Source: an uncultured Gammaproteobacteria bacterium (GTDB taxonomy: Bacteria > Patescibacteriota > Microgenomatia > JAMCZE01). Taken from it: a stretch of DNA of 64,000 nt. Shown here one piece after another: positions 40,826-47,313 of this stretch. The notes beneath the pieces are model-generated. The model was not told the origin of the DNA. It did no database searches and worked only from the letters and a program-made list of their open reading frames with translations. The stretch lies in the NCBI GenBank assembly GCA_964576435.1, contig CAZNUP010000001.1:294795-358794 (forward strand), written 5' to 3'. Within the stretch, counting starts at the first letter, position 1. The number at the start of each line of letters is the position of its first letter. Position numbers and translations under genes: made by a program.

Positions 40826-42749
40826 AACTAAAGTTTTCAGAAAACTTTCTACCGGCTGCGCCAGAGAATTTAATTGTTCTATCTAAAGCTTTAGTTAAGC
40901 TTGGGATCTCAAAGGCTGTTGCTTTTAAAGAAATTCCATCCGGAATCCAATTAAATCCAGGAATGTCAAAAGTCACGAGTGGTTTGCCATATGATAACGC
41001 TTCAAGAGCGGTTAGTGATCTAGTCTCAAACCTAGATGGAACAACAATACACAGCGCTTCTCTAAGCAACTTTTCTTTTTCATTTCCACTTACTCTTCCC
41101 ACAAATCTAACACGTGTTGAAATTCCAAATGATCTAACAAGGGATTTTATTTTTAAGACATCTTGATCATTTCCATTTCCTGCAATAACTAAGTAATATT
41201 TTTTCCTAAGTTTTGATTTGGCAAATGCTGGAATTAGCAAATCAAACCCTTTTTGGTCAAACTCCAATCTACCCATAAATAGTACATATTTATTTCTAAG
41301 TCCCACACTTGATGGCAAGTCTCTGCCGTTGGGAATTATCGCAATATCAGCTTGGTTGTTTATGTTTTTAATTTCGTCTCTTGATTCTTCTGAAGTTACA
41401 ATGAATATCTTTCTTGCTTTCAAAACTAAATCTTCCCATGGTTTAACCGAAACTTTATATTTCCTCTTCATGTCATTAGCTGGCAGCATATGAATAAGGC
41501 CAACAACCTTCTTTTTAGAAAATAAATTCAAAAAGAAAGATGACAAAGGAGGTACAAAGCTTTCGATCCAAATGTCGAAGTTATTTAGTAATACTCTTGG
41601 AACAAGTAAGGCACTAAAGATTGGTTGAGCAAATCTCGGACCAAATATAGCTGTCCCGATAAACTTATGTTTAACTCCGTTTTCTATAAAATCCTTTGAA
41701 TCTTTATGCTTTCCTGAATAAACTACAACTTCAAAGTTATCACTTAGTCTTTTAGAAATATCGTCAATAGCTATTGCTCCACCCCCTGCATAGTGGGGAT
41801 TATTAGTAGAATCGTAATTTGAAAAAACGATTGTCTTATATTTTGTCTTAGTTGATGCCAACATGTCCCACAAACCGTTTGGTTTAGAAATCCTATCTCC
41901 AAAAAACTTAAGCAGTATATTTTCAAAAACAGCAAGTGTCGCAAAGATTGGATTTCTTAAAAACTCATGAAATGTTCCACGTAGTTTGTAACTTTTTGGA
42001 ATTTCATAATTTGCAAATATATTCTTGCCAAATATTTTTTCAAGTCTCTCTAGATTTCTACCAAACGTTCTTTTATGAAGTTTGACCTGATCTGAAATTG
42101 TATTTGGGGGAAAATATAAGATAGATGCATCACGGGCGTATCCAAAATCTCCATATTTCTTAGCTGATAAATAAATAAATCCTCTCTCTTCATCACCAAG
42201 ATCAACAGGTAGCCTTAATTTCTTAGCAAAATCCTTTTTATAAATTGCTATCGCCCCATAAAAGTTATGCACACTATCATAATTTGGAAATTGGAGTCTT
42301 ACTCGGTCCCACATGGAAAAATCAGCATGAATTACTTTTCCTAAAAAGTTGTCAGGTCTTTTAATATCCTGATGACCAGAAGCCATTACGAATTTGCTGT
42401 TTTCTTGAATCTTCTTAACAAGGTTGCCAAGGACATTCTCACTACACAAGTAAATATCGGCATCGAGAACTACCAATAAGTCGGATGTATTTTCTTTAAA
42501 GATTTGATTCAAACGACTTATTTTCCCGAGTCTTTTCGTATCAGAAACTAACTGAAAGGTTTTATTGATTTTGATTTTGTCATTAACTATCTCCTCAGTT
42601 CTATCAGTGCTTCCGTCTGAATAAACTTTAATTTTTTCCAATACAAAATTAGACTGATTTTGACGAATAGTCTGATCAAGGACATTGCTAATGCCAATCT
42701 CTTCGTTAAAAGCCGGAATTGCAACTGTTAATGTTGGTTTTCTATTCAT
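40773..42749 (-). CDS. bifunctional glycosyltransferase: N-terminal GT2 (GT-A fold) plus C-terminal GT4-like (GT-B fold)
   Basis: LTVAIPAFNEE…DGSTD and DAD motifs (GT2). C-terminal …ETRSLTALEALSYGKPLV… (GT4 E-x7-E region). Confidence 0.7.
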   Translation of the reverse strand: MNRKPTLTVAIPAFNEEIGISNVLDQTIRQNQSNFVLEKIKVYSDGSTDRTEEIVNDKIKINKTFQLVSDTKRLGKISRLNQIFKENTSDLLVVLDADIYLCSENVLGNLVKKIQENSKFVMASGHQDIKRPDNFLGKVIHADFSMWDRVRLQFPNYDSVHNFYGAIAIYKKDFAKKLRLPVDLGDEERGFIYLSAKKYGDFGYARDASILYFPPNTISDQVKLHKRTFGRNLERLEKIFGKNIFANYEIPKSYKLRGTFHEFLRNPIFATLAVFENILLKFFGDRISKPNGLWDMLASTKTKYKTIVFSNYDSTNNPHYAGGGAIAIDDISKRLSDNFEVVVYSGKHKDSKDFIENGVKHKFIGTAIFGPRFAQPIFSALLVPRVLLNNFDIWIESFVPPLSSFFLNLFSKKKVVGLIHMLPANDMKRKYKVSVKPWEDLVLKARKIFIVTSEESRDEIKNINNQADIAIIPNGRDLPSSVGLRNKYVLFMGRLEFDQKGFDLLIPAFAKSKLRKKYYLVIAGNGNDQDVLKIKSLVRSFGISTRVRFVGRVSGNEKEKLLREALCIVVPSRFETRSLTALEALSYGKPLVTFDIPGFNWIPDGISLKATAFEIPSLTKALDRTIKFSGAAGRKFSENFSYEAISEKYKDFIYGQIN

Positions 42750-45700: not shown

Positions 45701-47313
45701 AAAAGTCTTGCTCCAAGGTCACAGTCCTCTGTAACGTTAAATGCATCCCAGCCTCCCAATTTAACAAGAAGTTCTCTTCTAAAATGATTACTTGTCCCCC
45801 CTAGTGGAATTGTGGTTTCAATTGATTGAAAAGCAGGTAACATAAGATCAAACCATAATGAGTATTCTGCAGTGAACAATCGTGTGAGAATATTTTGGTT
45901 CGGGTTGTAATAGTTAAGTTTTGCCTGTAGGCAACACACTTGTTCTGGAGCATTTTTAAATGCCAGCGCTGCCTTTATAAGTTGTAGTGGTTCTGGTTGA
46001 TCTTCAGCATCATAAATGACAACCAGTTCTCCTGTCGAAATCGAAAGTCCATAGTTACAAGCTTTTGGTTTTGTCTTAGGCTGAGAATCAGGGACAATGA
46101 CAATCTTAATAAATTTTGGAAGTTTAGCCCTTTGCGCACTTAAAATTGTCTCCGTGTCGTTTTCTTCAAGAAGAAGTAAAACTTCGAGTTTGTTTTTTGG
46201 ATAGACAAGTGTTTGCATGTTTTTAACAAATTGAGGTAAAACTCCGGCCTCTTTATAAAGTGGACAAAGAACTGAATAAGTTGGTAAGTCCTTCGTATTT
46301 ACGCTTTTGAGTTCGGTTTCAGAAAAAGATATTTCTTGTCTCTTTTGCAGACTTTTTGTAACAAGGAAAAGCGTGAATATCACGTCAACAAAGTAGATAA
46401 TTGATAAAACTGCAAGAGTTGCGCTAATTGTCAAAATAGGATTTATGACAAGTCCAGCAAGAATTGTTAATCCAGCTAGAACTACCGCTACCTTTTGCCA
46501 ATTAATCAGTGTCTGAACTGCCGAGTGCTTAGGTTCTAAATTAGTGTGGGTAATAAAGCGTCTTTTCTTATAAATGGTCCCGTATCCAATCATTGAGTTT
46601 TGGTTTTTTGGATTGATTGTGTAGACCTTTCTAGTTTGCAGTCTTTGTTTGACAGCGCTCTGCATAATTCCGAGAGAGGCGGAAACGAGTTTAATACTAG
46701 ATTTGCCGTTAGCTCTTTCACTAAACGTAATATCAACAGAACCAACTTCAAACCCTAGTTCTCGAGCTGTATAGATAAGTGGAACATCTAGTGCCCACTC
46801 AGTAATTTGCTCTTTGTCAAGGAAATCAAAAATTTCTCGTTTGAAAAGTTTAAGTCCAGATTGTGAGTCGAAGTTCCAACCAAGTAGTACTTTGCCGAAA
46901 ATAAATCGATTTGCTTTAGAAAAAAGGCTTCTAAGTTTTCCTTGGTCTTGTTTTGATCTATTTGCAACGACAAGTCCGAATTTTTCTCGGAGGCTATACA
47001 TCTCAGGGATTGCTTCTGGTGGATATTGCAAATCTCCATCAATCATTACTACGTATTCGCTCGTGGCTAGACCAACTCCCTCAAAAATACTAAACGCCTT
47101 TCCTCGTTCTCCTGTCTTTTCATGGATAAGAATCGGATATTTCTTGGCTGCTTTTTTGAGCTCAGGAAGGGTATTGTCATGAGACTTATCGACTACAAAA
47201 ATAGCCTTGTAGCTTATATTCGCAATTCGCATAGCACGTTCCAACCTTGCCATAAGTGGCGCAATGTTTTTTTCCTCATTCATGACTGGAATAACTACAT
47301 CAAGCTTGTGCAT
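42742..47313 (-). CDS. 1523-aa four-module envelope polysaccharide synthase: GT2 (polyprenyl-phosphate sugar synthase GtrB/DPM1-like), processive GT2 with QxxRW (cellulose/chitin/hyaluronan-synthase-like), multi-pass MOP-flippase-like membrane domain, GT4
   Basis: N-terminus VIPVMNEE…DGDLQYP (DPM1-like). Middle DAED…TEDCDL…QRSRW. Approximately 450-aa polytopic segment. C-terminus …EGWGITSIEANACGTPVV… (GT4). Start overlaps the upstream HTH gene by 14 nt. Confidence 0.75.
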   Translation of the reverse strand: MHKLDVVIPVMNEEKNIAPLMARLERAMRIANISYKAIFVVDKSHDNTLPELKKAAKKYPILIHEKTGERGKAFSIFEGVGLATSEYVVMIDGDLQYPPEAIPEMYSLREKFGLVVANRSKQDQGKLRSLFSKANRFIFGKVLLGWNFDSQSGLKLFKREIFDFLDKEQITEWALDVPLIYTARELGFEVGSVDITFSERANGKSSIKLVSASLGIMQSAVKQRLQTRKVYTINPKNQNSMIGYGTIYKKRRFITHTNLEPKHSAVQTLINWQKVAVVLAGLTILAGLVINPILTISATLAVLSIIYFVDVIFTLFLVTKSLQKRQEISFSETELKSVNTKDLPTYSVLCPLYKEAGVLPQFVKNMQTLVYPKNKLEVLLLLEENDTETILSAQRAKLPKFIKIVIVPDSQPKTKPKACNYGLSISTGELVVIYDAEDQPEPLQLIKAALAFKNAPEQVCCLQAKLNYYNPNQNILTRLFTAEYSLWFDLMLPAFQSIETTIPLGGTSNHFRRELLVKLGGWDAFNVTEDCDLGARLFKNGYKTAIIDSVTLEEANSDLGNWIRQRSRWIKGYIQTYLVHMRNPFRLVKQLGTHAIIFQLVIGARTTFMLINPILWIMTISYFVLYRFVGPTIESFYPAPIFYMAVFSLTIGNFLYLYIYMIAVAKRNQWDLVKFIFLVPVYWLLVSLAALKAFKQLIFQPHFWEKTNHGLQTSQISKAFLPKFSFERVLRPEVFAAAFLVFSTLGNYFLNFLYNAYLTRAANITISEFGLISLIGSFVYLSLIPMGALIRTVAHQSAFYFGGKTEYNRDYWSNVRIKAKAVSLTACLVWVALTPLLQIFFNSESPLPFLIFTPVWFIGTLNAVDVGFLTGSLKFSYLGWLLLSEAITRLLLTIIIVSLGLPQWVYLATPLSMMVSFGLGYLWASQTKRVKSEKIDFSTKFFGSSIILNLSSVVYLGGDILLARHFLSPVLSGEYAILSLIGKMVFFLGSLFSQFVVPIISKAQGAGYTTGKYFKLFFFGTFATGFSAFLFFGVFGDVTVPFFWAQKSLPIIRFLPMFTFAMMLFSLSALIVNFHQTQGKKFFAVASFSLSLTQVVFIVLRHNTILDFVHAALYASSISLLTMLAMHFIYPYLPSIKSNAIAFVGLFKRLPDKAPSSEKNLRILVFNWRDTKHVWAGGAEVYIQKLSESWAKLGHSVTIFSGNDGKSLRSETLNGVQIVRRGGFAFVYVWAILYYLIRFRGRYDVIVDCENGIPFFMPLFAKEKVVLVIHAVHQEIFRNGLPLPLYYFAAFLEKIVMPLVYRNTQVVTVSESSKKEILEHKLTHMEPAVVHNGIDLTFFKPGTKSKTPLVIYVGRLKKHKSLKVFINMAKRILDETPNVEFVIAGDGPDKKPLFDLVKKLKLTNQIKFTGKISEEEKLSLYQKAWVFVNPSMKEGWGITSIEANACGTPVVASNVPGLRDSVQNPHTGFLVKYGDTDRFAERVMALINNKSFREQTGKYGISWAKKYDWDKSASEFINVLKHE

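Follow-up and report, generated by a model that had tools for sequence, protein, structure and literature searches.

Assembly of the lactococcal rhamnose cell wall polysaccharide (Rha-CWPS) involves WpsA, a family 2 glycosyltransferase (GT2) without transmembrane (TM) helices that makes GlcNAc-P-C55; cytoplasmic glycosyltransferases (GTs) elongate the product, a Wzx-type flippase exports it, and GT-C enzymes polymerise the flipped unit and join it to a rhamnan that is made by another branch (PMC10821137). The E. coli GT2 exopolysaccharide synthase NfrB, a ManNAc polymer synthase, combines a GT2 with MshEN and is regulated via this domain (PMC8669469), a receptor for cyclic di-GMP (c-di-GMP; PMC5013675). 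Here, a 64,000-nt stretch of DNA from an uncultured bacterium (the window; contig CAZNUP010000001.1 of assembly GCA_964576435.1, positions 294,795 to 358,794, assigned by GTDB to Patescibacteriota, Microgenomatia) was found to encode, in one 1523-aa protein, a GT2 of lipid-sugar synthase type (GT2a), a synthase-like GT2 (GT2b), a flippase-like domain of the multidrug/oligosaccharidyl-lipid/polysaccharide (MOP) superfamily and a family 4 glycosyltransferase (GT4). The conserved, uncharacterised operon to which this gene belongs probably builds a surface glycan, and we tentatively read the protein as the core of a polyprenyl-phosphate-dependent surface-glycan machine in which two usually separate routes are merged.

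In archaeal N-glycosylation by the Agl pathways, AglJ and AglD are Dol-P-hexose synthases, AglR is a Wzx-like flippase, and AglS and AglB are GT-C enzymes. In the Pel system, the cytoplasmic GT4 PelF works with the 12-helix MOP-type protein PelG. We know of no characterised pathway that pairs a cellulose-synthase-like enzyme with a GT-C enzyme, and a literature survey, incomplete in coverage, of glycosyltransferases and flippases in Microgenomates, Woesebacteria and the Candidate Phyla Radiation (CPR), and of flippase-GT fusions, returned no description of a four-module protein.

The four-module protein and its domains

The gene is the second of a seven-gene operon. It and its modules lie in the window as follows.

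42742..47313, minus strand: four-module gene GT2a-GT2b-MOP-GT4 (ORF listing, translation, full-length homologues)
46609..47313, minus strand: GT2a, aa 1-235, soluble GT-A domain of DPM1/GtrB/ArnC type (Pfam, PDB, NCBIfam)
45181..46572, minus strand: GT2b, aa 248-711, membrane-embedded synthase-like GT2 (Pfam, BcsA alignment, hydropathy)
43864..45120, minus strand: MOP, aa 732-1150, 12-helix domain of Wzx/PST kind, putative lipid-linked glycan flippase
42745..43836, minus strand: GT4, aa 1160-1523, cytoplasmic retaining GT-B with E1434-x7-E1442 (Pfam, PDB, NCBIfam)

The open reading frame (ORF) starts with ATG and runs for 1523 codons without an internal stop, and the N-terminus of its product is in register with those of its homologues. 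The identical 1523-aa protein was recovered from two independent Logan assemblies and a 709-kb NCBI contig, and more than 120 cluster representatives with 99-100% query coverage and 48-55% identity were retrieved by protein search; they keep the four-module form at full length, and homologues of this domain order were what the first-pass annotation had suggested seeking in related genomes. An assembly error joining separate genes, which that annotation had raised, was ruled out together with a frameshift artefact by the identical ORF in independent assemblies and by these full-length homologues. Named sources of the homologues are Woesebacteria, Microgenomates or Patescibacteria, and their public-database labels read only "glycosyltransferase" or "hypothetical protein". 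A GTDB scan with one genome per species gave at least 595 relatives, of which the best 80 loci were taken; these included full four-module genes in metagenome-assembled genomes (MAGs) of Woese-, Dojka-, Gottesman-, Davies-, Roizman- and other Patescibacteria. Several MAG titles read Gammaproteobacteria or Bdellovibrionales, and such labels were treated with caution. Conservation of the 1523-aa protein was assessed over 33 aligned full-length homologues, to which the motif invariance and charge counts given for it below refer. The catalytic motifs of all three GT domains were invariant, and the inter-module linkers were the least conserved segments of the chain. In five homologues of 1818-1876 aa (P0058, P0074, P0086, P0104 and P0118), the chain ends in an additional fifth module whose fold is that of a phosphotransferase/kinase (PF01636, APH).

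GT2a matched PF00535 (GT2) at aa 6-162 above the gathering threshold. Its best PDB sequence match was the Pyrococcus furiosus dolichyl-phosphate mannose synthase (DPMS) 5mlz (9e-17, aa 3-208), with further matches to Synechocystis GtrB sll0501 (5ekp) and ArnC. The best NCBIfam models were PgfS, ArnC, AglJ (2.4e-12) and Dol-P-hexose transferase, all below their curated cut-offs (67 vs 500 bits for PgfS, 53 vs 529 for ArnC, 47 vs 325 for AglJ). In the motif D92-G-D94-L-Q96, D92 and D94 were invariant and Q96 was at least 90% conserved; the equivalent D-x-D-x-Q residues are D89/D91/Q93 in DPMS and D96/D98/Q100 in WpsA (PMC10821137). The module has no membrane helix of its own; the following conserved F-x-T-H...S-A...Q stretch and the next two helices were assigned to GT2b because stand-alone GT2b proteins also have them. 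GT2a is a putative polyprenyl-phosphate glycosyltransferase, a role that the GT2a-GT-C (L082) and MOP-GT2a (L078) fusions described below support indirectly.

GT2b matched PF13641/PF13632 at aa 344-627 above the gathering threshold and carries DAED (434-437), LGGTSNH (504-510), TED (528-530) and QRSRW (564-568). Together with KPKACNYG, these motifs align to those of BcsA and were invariant, the alignment covering the KAGN-like, DxD, FFCGS-like, TED and QxxRW elements and extending into the membrane helices that follow. In the PgaC_IcaA model of NCBIfam, GT2b spanned positions 26-393 of 407. Bit scores stayed below the curated cut-offs (71 vs 699 for CelA, 67-100 vs 422 for PgaC, 28 vs 550 for NodC), as did an NfrB-like NCBIfam match, and by these scores GT2b is a family separate from CelA, PgaC_IcaA and NodC. 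Two helices precede the catalytic domain (aa 272-323) and about four follow it (aa 594-697), and an invariant WEKTxHG motif ends the module. GT2b is the best-conserved part of the chain, with column identities of 0.72-0.83; its membrane helices are highly conserved, more so than its loops, and contain many invariant aromatic residues. Its putative function is to polymerise processively and export the product, for which the MshEN domains of orthologues outside CPR offer indirect support.

Outside CPR, GT2b orthologues with approximately 48% identity were found in Chloroflexota, Actinomycetota, Bacillota and others. In the four non-CPR orthologues that were scanned, from loci L061, L068, L071 and L078 in Actinomycetota, Chloroflexota and Bacillota, between one and six MshEN domains (PF05157, down to 1.4e-53) precede the GT2, and these proteins look like an uncharacterised c-di-GMP-controlled synthase family. 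The MshEN-GT2b genes always lie beside a GT-C-like gene, and an exosortase (EpsH) gene is near the L071 copy.

The MOP stretch of the 1523-aa protein itself gave no match in Pfam, even at E<=1, or in NCBIfam. Among 27 homologous domains, 12 matched PF01943 (Polysacc_synt, best 1.8e-10) and 4 matched PF13440 (Polysacc_synt_3, best 2.5e-13). A MOP profile searched against PDB sequences returned only a spurious match to a GPCR fusion (E 0.02), and structure prediction was therefore needed. The AlphaFold2 model of aa 725-1150, built from this segment and the matching segments of 26 homologues, was all-helical with a predicted local distance difference test score (pLDDT) of 90.5 and a predicted TM-score (pTM) of 0.88. 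Over its full length, Foldseek against PDB returned only MOP-superfamily transporters (E to 3.5e-7, TM-scores 0.62-0.74), among them PfMATE, VcmN, MurJ (6nc9) and WzxE (9g95). In the model, aa 732-1150 form a complete 12-helix MOP module of two six-helix lobes, which the sequence profiles place in the polysaccharide-transport (Wzx/PST) branch. Its family assignment and fusion partners point to translocation of a lipid-linked glycan. The possibility, also raised in the first-pass annotation, that this membrane region is merely the C-terminal channel of a BcsA-like synthase was rejected: the helices that belong to GT2b itself lie at aa 594-697, align to the post-QxxRW region of BcsA and PgaC and are distinct from the MOP domain, and the conserved WEKTxHG end of GT2b is followed by approximately 420 aa of full MOP fold. 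A PelG/PelF-like pair was also unsupported, as no PelG Pfam model matched the MOP domain or its 27 homologues. When 1.84 billion representatives were searched with the MOP profile, 597 proteins reached E<=1e-30, and the top 150 of these fell into three groups, namely stand-alone proteins of approximately 410-470 aa, proteins of approximately 720-860 aa with an N-terminal MOP, and proteins of 1290-1611 aa with a central MOP.

GT4 matched PF13439 at aa 1177-1337 (64.5 bits) and PF00534 at aa 1337-1502 (156 bits, E 9e-46), both above gathering thresholds, and E1434 and E1442 were invariant. PDB sequence matches were TarM, BshA, MshA, PimA/B and PglA-type enzymes, and NCBIfam matches were MshA (1e-33), BshA (9e-29) and Agl16 (1.3e-22), all below cut-off; to judge by these matches the module is a generic retaining GT4. 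Every NCBIfam score fell far short of its curated cut-off, and by this measure none of the modules is an equivalog of a characterised enzyme.

Hydropathy placed helices at aa 272-323, at aa 594-697 and across aa 735-1140. The lysine plus arginine (K/R) count was 5.1 before the first helix pair (aa 248-274), 4.1 after QRSRW (569-595), 8.7 in the linker 698-735, 5.1 in the central MOP loop and 3.5 in the post-MOP linker, and near zero in the TM1-TM2 loop. The sole layout in which each of the three GT domains and both ends of the MOP domain would be cytoplasmic has 2+4+12 = 18 helices, and the four post-catalytic helices of GT2b then match the BcsA layout.

The first-pass annotation had described a single 1523-aa chain of four modules, and this description held. 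The ORF, Pfam, AlphaFold2 and Foldseek together give the four modules in one chain, and hydropathy and K/R distribution fit cytoplasmic GT domains, a topology that the annotation had proposed to check. The polyprenyl-phosphate sugar synthase type of the first GT2 is reflected in DPMS, GtrB and ArnC as closest relatives, and the synthase-like nature of the second, with DAED/TED/QRSRW, in Pfam, the BcsA alignment and the PgaC_IcaA model. The MOP/Wzx-type middle region of approximately 12 helices was recovered by the AlphaFold2 model, Foldseek and Pfam matches of homologues, and the C-terminal GT-B GT4 with E-x7-E by PF13439 plus PF00534 and E1434/E1442.

The operon, its GT-C partners and the proposed mechanism

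The operon consists of seven head-to-tail genes on the minus strand, from 47491 to 34680, whose ends overlap or abut. Besides the four-module gene, it comprises the following, listed in order of transcription.

47300..47491, minus strand: HTH_17 (PF12728) gene, 63 aa, operon gene 1 (ORF listing, Pfam label)
40773..42749, minus strand: soluble GT2+GT4 fusion, 658 aa, variable cassette (Pfam, NCBIfam, neighbouring loci)
38984..40825, minus strand: fusion of a PIG-L-type de-N-acetylase and a FemAB-like GNAT (Acetyltransf_6), 613 aa, variable cassette (Pfam)
37482..38987, minus strand: o501, 501-aa multi-pass membrane protein, probably GT-C (GT39/PMT_2-like) (NCBIfam, PF13231 of homologues, synteny)
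35936..37495, minus strand: o519, 519-aa GT-C-fold membrane protein (AlphaFold2, Foldseek, homologues)
34680..35939, minus strand: o419, 419 aa, last gene, membrane-anchored and hydrolase-like (hydropathy, Pfam of homologues, synteny)

A lipid-sugar GT2, a flippase and GT-C proteins are encoded together, with GT2a and MOP in one protein and two GT-C-type proteins in the operon. Among the seven genes, no Pfam or NCBIfam match to a WbaP/WecA-type phosphoglycosyl transferase, Wzy or Wzz was found.

One partner, o519, is more conserved than the 1523-aa protein: its homologues (more than 1900 matches, all annotated hypothetical) are 61-68% identical over more than 120 clusters, vs 48-55% for the larger protein. 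It had no Pfam match. Its AlphaFold2 model (pLDDT 76.9) matched, at Foldseek probability >=0.9 against PDB, only GT-C enzymes (STT3, PglB, ArnT, AftA, ALG9, Emb, AftD, PMT), and by this predicted structure o519 is a GT-C-fold protein. Long invariant stretches lie in the first loop and in the C-terminal soluble domain. The loop after the first helix holds an invariant acidic/basic motif, Y34 N35 D36 R38 S39 H40 L41 D42 (YND-RSHLD...GLAQLGSVWLPLPH), which would sit where GT-C enzymes have their catalytic Asp. In all the phyla, almost every locus has an o519-like gene that either neighbours GT2b or is fused with it.

The second partner, o501, also without a Pfam match, has nine hydrophobic segments by hydropathy. 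PF13231 (PMT_2) was present in approximately 18 of its 120 best homologues, two of which are named GT39 by NCBI, and the NCBIfam LA_3751/3752 putative glycosyltransferase model matched o501 (6e-12) and o519 (2e-8) weakly; o501 is probably a GT-C. The two proteins were rejected as close paralogues, as BLASTP found nothing and hhalign gave a probability of only 35%. The o501 gene occurred only where a family-type GT4, usually with MOP, was present. Two o501 homologues, P0325 (819 aa) and P0334 (854 aa), are fused to a GT2 domain (PF00535/PF13641/PF13632), another type of GT2-GT-C fusion. The last protein, o419, has one N-terminal helix, an extracytoplasmic domain weakly similar to a glycoside-hydrolase core, and a CarboxypepD_reg-like beta-sandwich; within its family, PF13620 was found in 10 of 14 members, and a search of PDB by sequence found nothing.

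Three distant homologue loci follow the same plan of big gene, variable genes, a pair of membrane proteins of approximately 510-540 aa and a protein of approximately 420 aa. Their variable genes include GT2, GT4, DegT aminotransferase, epimerases/dehydratases, methyltransferase, nucleotidyltransferase, Polysacc_deac_1 and PIG-L. The o501 and o519 genes lay downstream in this order on the same strand in 34 of the 44 loci with a family-type GT4, and o419 was also present in 22 of these 34. The gap between the big gene and o501 measured 1.1-6.8 kb (median 3.8 kb) and held genes for GTs, epimerases, aminotransferases, methyltransferases and deacetylases. In layout this is a glycan locus whose ends are conserved while its middle varies in a serotype-like way. 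The 658-aa GT2+GT4 fusion corresponds to two separate genes in other loci, and the PIG-L and GNAT counterparts are, in many loci, separate genes of approximately 260 and 360 aa, sometimes with two or three GNAT copies; the pairing suggests that an amino sugar is first de-N-acetylated and then N-acylated.

The mechanism that we tentatively favour is as follows. GT2b, as a BcsA/PgaC-type enzyme, would polymerise a backbone glycan from nucleotide sugar and pass the chain across the membrane between its own helices. GT2a, which the fusion keeps at the membrane, would make a C55-P-monosaccharide. On the cytoplasmic face, the GT4 module, the GT2+GT4 protein and the PIG-L/GNAT protein would extend and modify the lipid-phosphate-linked sugar in a genome-variable manner, and the MOP/Wzx domain would flip the lipid-linked sugar or oligosaccharide. 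Outside, o501 and o519 would polymerise the lipid-linked unit and/or transfer it onto the backbone, with o519 at the GT2b exit, and the anchored hydrolase-like o419 would trim or release the product. The 1523-aa protein would then function as an assembly line. By analogy, and as tentatively as the scheme itself, this may follow the lactococcal "dual-chain" logic with a synthase replacing the ATP-binding cassette (ABC) transporter route to the backbone and four steps placed on one polypeptide.

This reading is preferred because of the module identities, the topology, the conserved operon, the GT-C partners, the "Rosetta stone" fusions described below and the GtrB/Wzx/GT-C precedent, and GT2b is taken as a polymer synthase because of its full set of BcsA core motifs, its conserved aromatic-rich helices and its MshEN-bearing orthologues. 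Several observations weigh against it. PF13506 (GT21) also matches GT2b (5e-7), and QxxRW-type GT2s include non-polymerising, lipid-directed transferases. Many non-CPR loci have GT2b and GT-C, with or without GT2a, and lack MOP or GT4, so the two halves may serve separable functions. The hydrolase assignment of o419 is weak, the glycoside-hydrolase-core family PF11790 being found in 3 of 14 family members (8e-4, weak).

The composition of the cassette bears on another explanation. A GT4, a PIG-L deacetylase, a flippase, a DPM1-like GT2 and GT-C enzymes mirror the biosynthesis of glycosylphosphatidylinositol (GPI) and of mycobacterial phosphatidylinositol mannosides and lipomannan (PIM/LM). The operon might accordingly build a lipoglycan of the GPI or PIM-LM-lipoarabinomannan (LAM) kind, in which GT4 places a sugar (GlcNAc or other) on a membrane lipid, PIG-L de-N-acetylates it, MOP flips it, the GT-C enzymes extend it with the GT2a product and GT2b adds or exports a polymer. 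This mirroring is matched by the best GT4 families, MshA and BshA, the products of which PIG-L-family enzymes deacetylate, also by the GT4 matches to PimA/PimB, and by PIG-L or GNAT genes in approximately 40% of loci. However, PIG-L is missing from many loci, hence a member of the variable cassette, the GT4 matches are generic, and characterised PST/Wzx members move polyprenyl-linked glycans; we consider a lipoglycan very unlikely.

Immediately after the operon, in the region 33525-34651 on the minus strand, come a sortase gene (PF04203) and, beside it, a gene whose 196-aa secreted product has a G/S-rich tract and ends in "LAATG", a hydrophobic segment and an RNK tail, an arrangement that looks like a sorting signal. 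At the distant locus L003 (1344-9511), genes for a sortase and a 2189-aa SpaA-type pilin immediately precede the HTH gene and the giant gene. The glycan might be attached to sortase substrates.

These neighbours, here and in L003, fit a scheme without any polymer synthase, in which GT2b would act non-processively on a lipid-linked intermediate and a Wzx-dependent polyprenyl-monophosphate oligosaccharide, started by GT2a, would be transferred by GT-C enzymes to protein (S-layer, pilin) or wall, as in Agl. The AglJ and Dol-P-hexose transferase matches of GT2a and the Agl16 match of GT4 point the same way, as do the lack of a phosphoglycosyl transferase or Wzy match in the operon, the occurrence of QxxRW in GT21-type lipid glycosyltransferases and the top Foldseek matches of o519, the oligosaccharyltransferases (OSTs) STT3 and PglB. 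TM-scores of o519 to OSTs were only approximately 0.5, however, ArnT fits at least equally well (TMq 0.58), and the consensus of the o519 alignment showed no WWDxG-like motif. GT2b, moreover, keeps every BcsA motif, conserves its helices above its loops, and has orthologues with the c-di-GMP receptor domains typical of exopolysaccharide synthases. On balance, a pathway without a synthase is improbable, and the merged synthase and flippase route is retained as the preferred reading.

Operon gene 1 runs 14 nt into the start of the four-module gene. A small HTH_17 gene is found at the same place in L003 and not in the distant loci L004 and L005, and this excisionase/MerR-like gene may be a dedicated operon regulator. 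Upstream of it lies one further feature.

47567..47595, minus strand: sigma-70-like promoter match, 11/12 positions, upstream of the HTH_17 gene (consensus scan, weak)

Matches to the promoter consensus in the region were no more numerous than in shuffled sequence. Elsewhere in the window, four consecutive paralogous ORFs (262-264 aa) and then an ABC ATPase are encoded at 19380-23599 on the plus strand; the two paralogues scanned are ABC-2 membrane proteins (PF06182).

Fusion and fission of the modules across genomes

Family-specific hidden Markov models of the four modules were run over 85 loci, and the following arrangements were found; fusions at individual loci that involve a GT-C or GT2a-like domain are added at the end of the list.

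GT2a-GT2b-MOP-GT4, one ORF: 17 loci
GT2b-MOP-GT4: 8 loci
GT2a-GT2b-GT4, twice with a separate adjacent MOP gene: 4+ loci
GT2a-GT2b, adjacent gene MOP-GT4: 3-4 loci
GT2b, adjacent gene MOP-GT4: 2 loci
GT2b, adjacent gene MOP: 3 loci
GT2a-GT2b alone: 6 loci
GT2b-GT4: 2 loci
GT2b alone: 31 loci
L063:10735-14604: GT2b-GT-C fusion, 1290 aa
L066:9776-12781: GT2b-GT-C fusion, 1002 aa
L082:11287-14586: GT2a-like + o519-like + GH5 fusion, 1100 aa
L078:14035-16068, minus strand: MOP + GT2a-like fusion, 678 aa

In Ktedonobacterales, the C-terminus of GT2b is fused to an o519-like domain (blastp 2e-71 to o519; PMT_2 1.8e-7). The L082 and L078 fusions likewise come from outside CPR. The first-pass annotation had called the four-module architecture highly unusual; this stands in comparison with characterised systems, but the architecture is common in Microgenomates/Patescibacteria, where split and part-fused variants also occur.

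The fusions could lack mechanistic meaning, neighbouring genes having merged in small, streamlined genomes while the modules act independently and possibly in different pathways. Split versions are known for every junction, the MOP subfamily is mostly stand-alone or MOP-GT4, and the linkers are the least conserved segments, all of which would be expected from such merging. Yet the same partners have been fused repeatedly in varied orders and lineages (GT2b-GT-C, GT2a-GT-C, MOP-GT2a, MOP-GT4, GT2a-GT2b) and are syntenic across phyla, and the full-length four-module form is kept in more than 120 clusters at only approximately 50% identity. Little probability is therefore given to meaningless fusion.

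The MOP-GT2a fusion at L078 and the GT2a-GT-C fusion at L082 link the donor synthase to a flippase and to a GT-C enzyme, and they bear on a simpler use of the same parts. GT2b would make and export a polymer, the C55-P-monosaccharide made by GT2a would be flipped unchanged by the MOP domain, and o519 and o501 would add single-sugar branches; GT4 and the cassette GTs would act elsewhere, for example by starting the polymer on an acceptor lipid or protein. The set of GT2a, flippase and GT-C is complete for this purpose, and GacI/J/K/L of group A Streptococcus uses a Wzx-type flippase for GlcNAc-P-C55 (PMC10821137). Decoration with monosaccharides would, however, leave unexplained the GT4-MOP fusion in most variants, the restriction of o501 to loci with a family-type GT4, and the variable soluble GT/sugar-modifying set between the big gene and the GT-C genes, and it is judged unlikely. 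The preferred mechanism, with an extended lipid-linked unit, is kept over it.

GT2b and one GT-C form a core pair conserved over Chloroflexota, Actinomycetota and Bacillota, in which GT2b often bears MshEN domains or is fused to its GT-C partner. A broader proposal, rather doubtful at present, is that of an undescribed hybrid route: the synthase channel GT2b would be obligately paired with a GT-C acting on the emerging polymer, and CPR would have fused to it the lipid-phosphate donor branch of initiation, elongation and Wzx-type flipping. GT2b plus GT-C would then be an ancient module common to Patescibacteria, Chloroflexota, Actinomycetota and Bacillota, c-di-GMP-controlled outside CPR, and its product a major CPR envelope polymer.

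Comparison with known systems

A large part of bacterial diversity belongs to Patescibacteria/CPR, whose envelope glycans are almost uncharted. The operon is among the most conserved large gene sets around the four-module gene, as the identities of the o519 homologues illustrate. "Rosetta stone" fusions tie a Wzx-type flippase to defined glycosyltransferases and a lipid-phosphate sugar synthase, and a cellulose-synthase-like enzyme to a GT-C enzyme, and they offer an entry to flippase substrate selection and to the branching of synthase-made polymers. The c-di-GMP-linked synthase family occurs in Actinomycetota and Chloroflexota that can be cultured and are amenable to genetics. Each part belongs to a known kind; what appears undescribed, as predicted from the encoded proteins, is a single chain that carries four steps, one of them a Wzx-type flippase. 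Nor was a description found of the two unannotated GT-C families or of a BcsA-like GT2 obligately paired with a GT-C over several phyla.

The locus differs from Pel in that PelF is not among the top GT4 matches and neither PelD nor PelE is present. It shares with archaeal Agl the start on a polyprenyl monophosphate by a DPM1-like GT2, a Wzx-like flippase and external GT-C transfer, whereas Agl has no synthase-like GT2 and no fusions, and the matches to Agl models here are well below cut-offs. Unlike the solved Wzx/PST, MurJ and MATE proteins, to which it is 12-18% identical, the MOP module is set between two glycosyltransferases and is not free-standing.

As in BcsA, PgaC/IcaA, NodC and NfrB, GT2b has the D, DxD, G-[ST], TED and QxxRW elements with helices on both sides. 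In contrast to the BcsA and PgaC systems, it comes without a PilZ domain and without a BcsB, PgaD or outer-membrane partner, and has an obligate GT-C partner instead. Its non-CPR orthologues resemble NfrB in carrying MshEN, which is N-terminal in them and not C-terminal as in NfrB, and which is absent from the CPR protein.

The closest likeness is to lactococcal WpsA-J and streptococcal GacI/J/K/L, which likewise combine a TM-less DPMS/GtrB-type GT2, a Wzx-type MOP protein and GT-C enzymes with a strain-variable GT cassette (PMC10821137). Unlike in Wps and Gac, GT2a is tethered by fusion and not by a WpsB/GacJ partner, the GT-C enzymes belong to two unannotated families, and the backbone would come from a BcsA/PgaC-like synthase and not from an ABC-transporter route, with four steps carried on one polypeptide.

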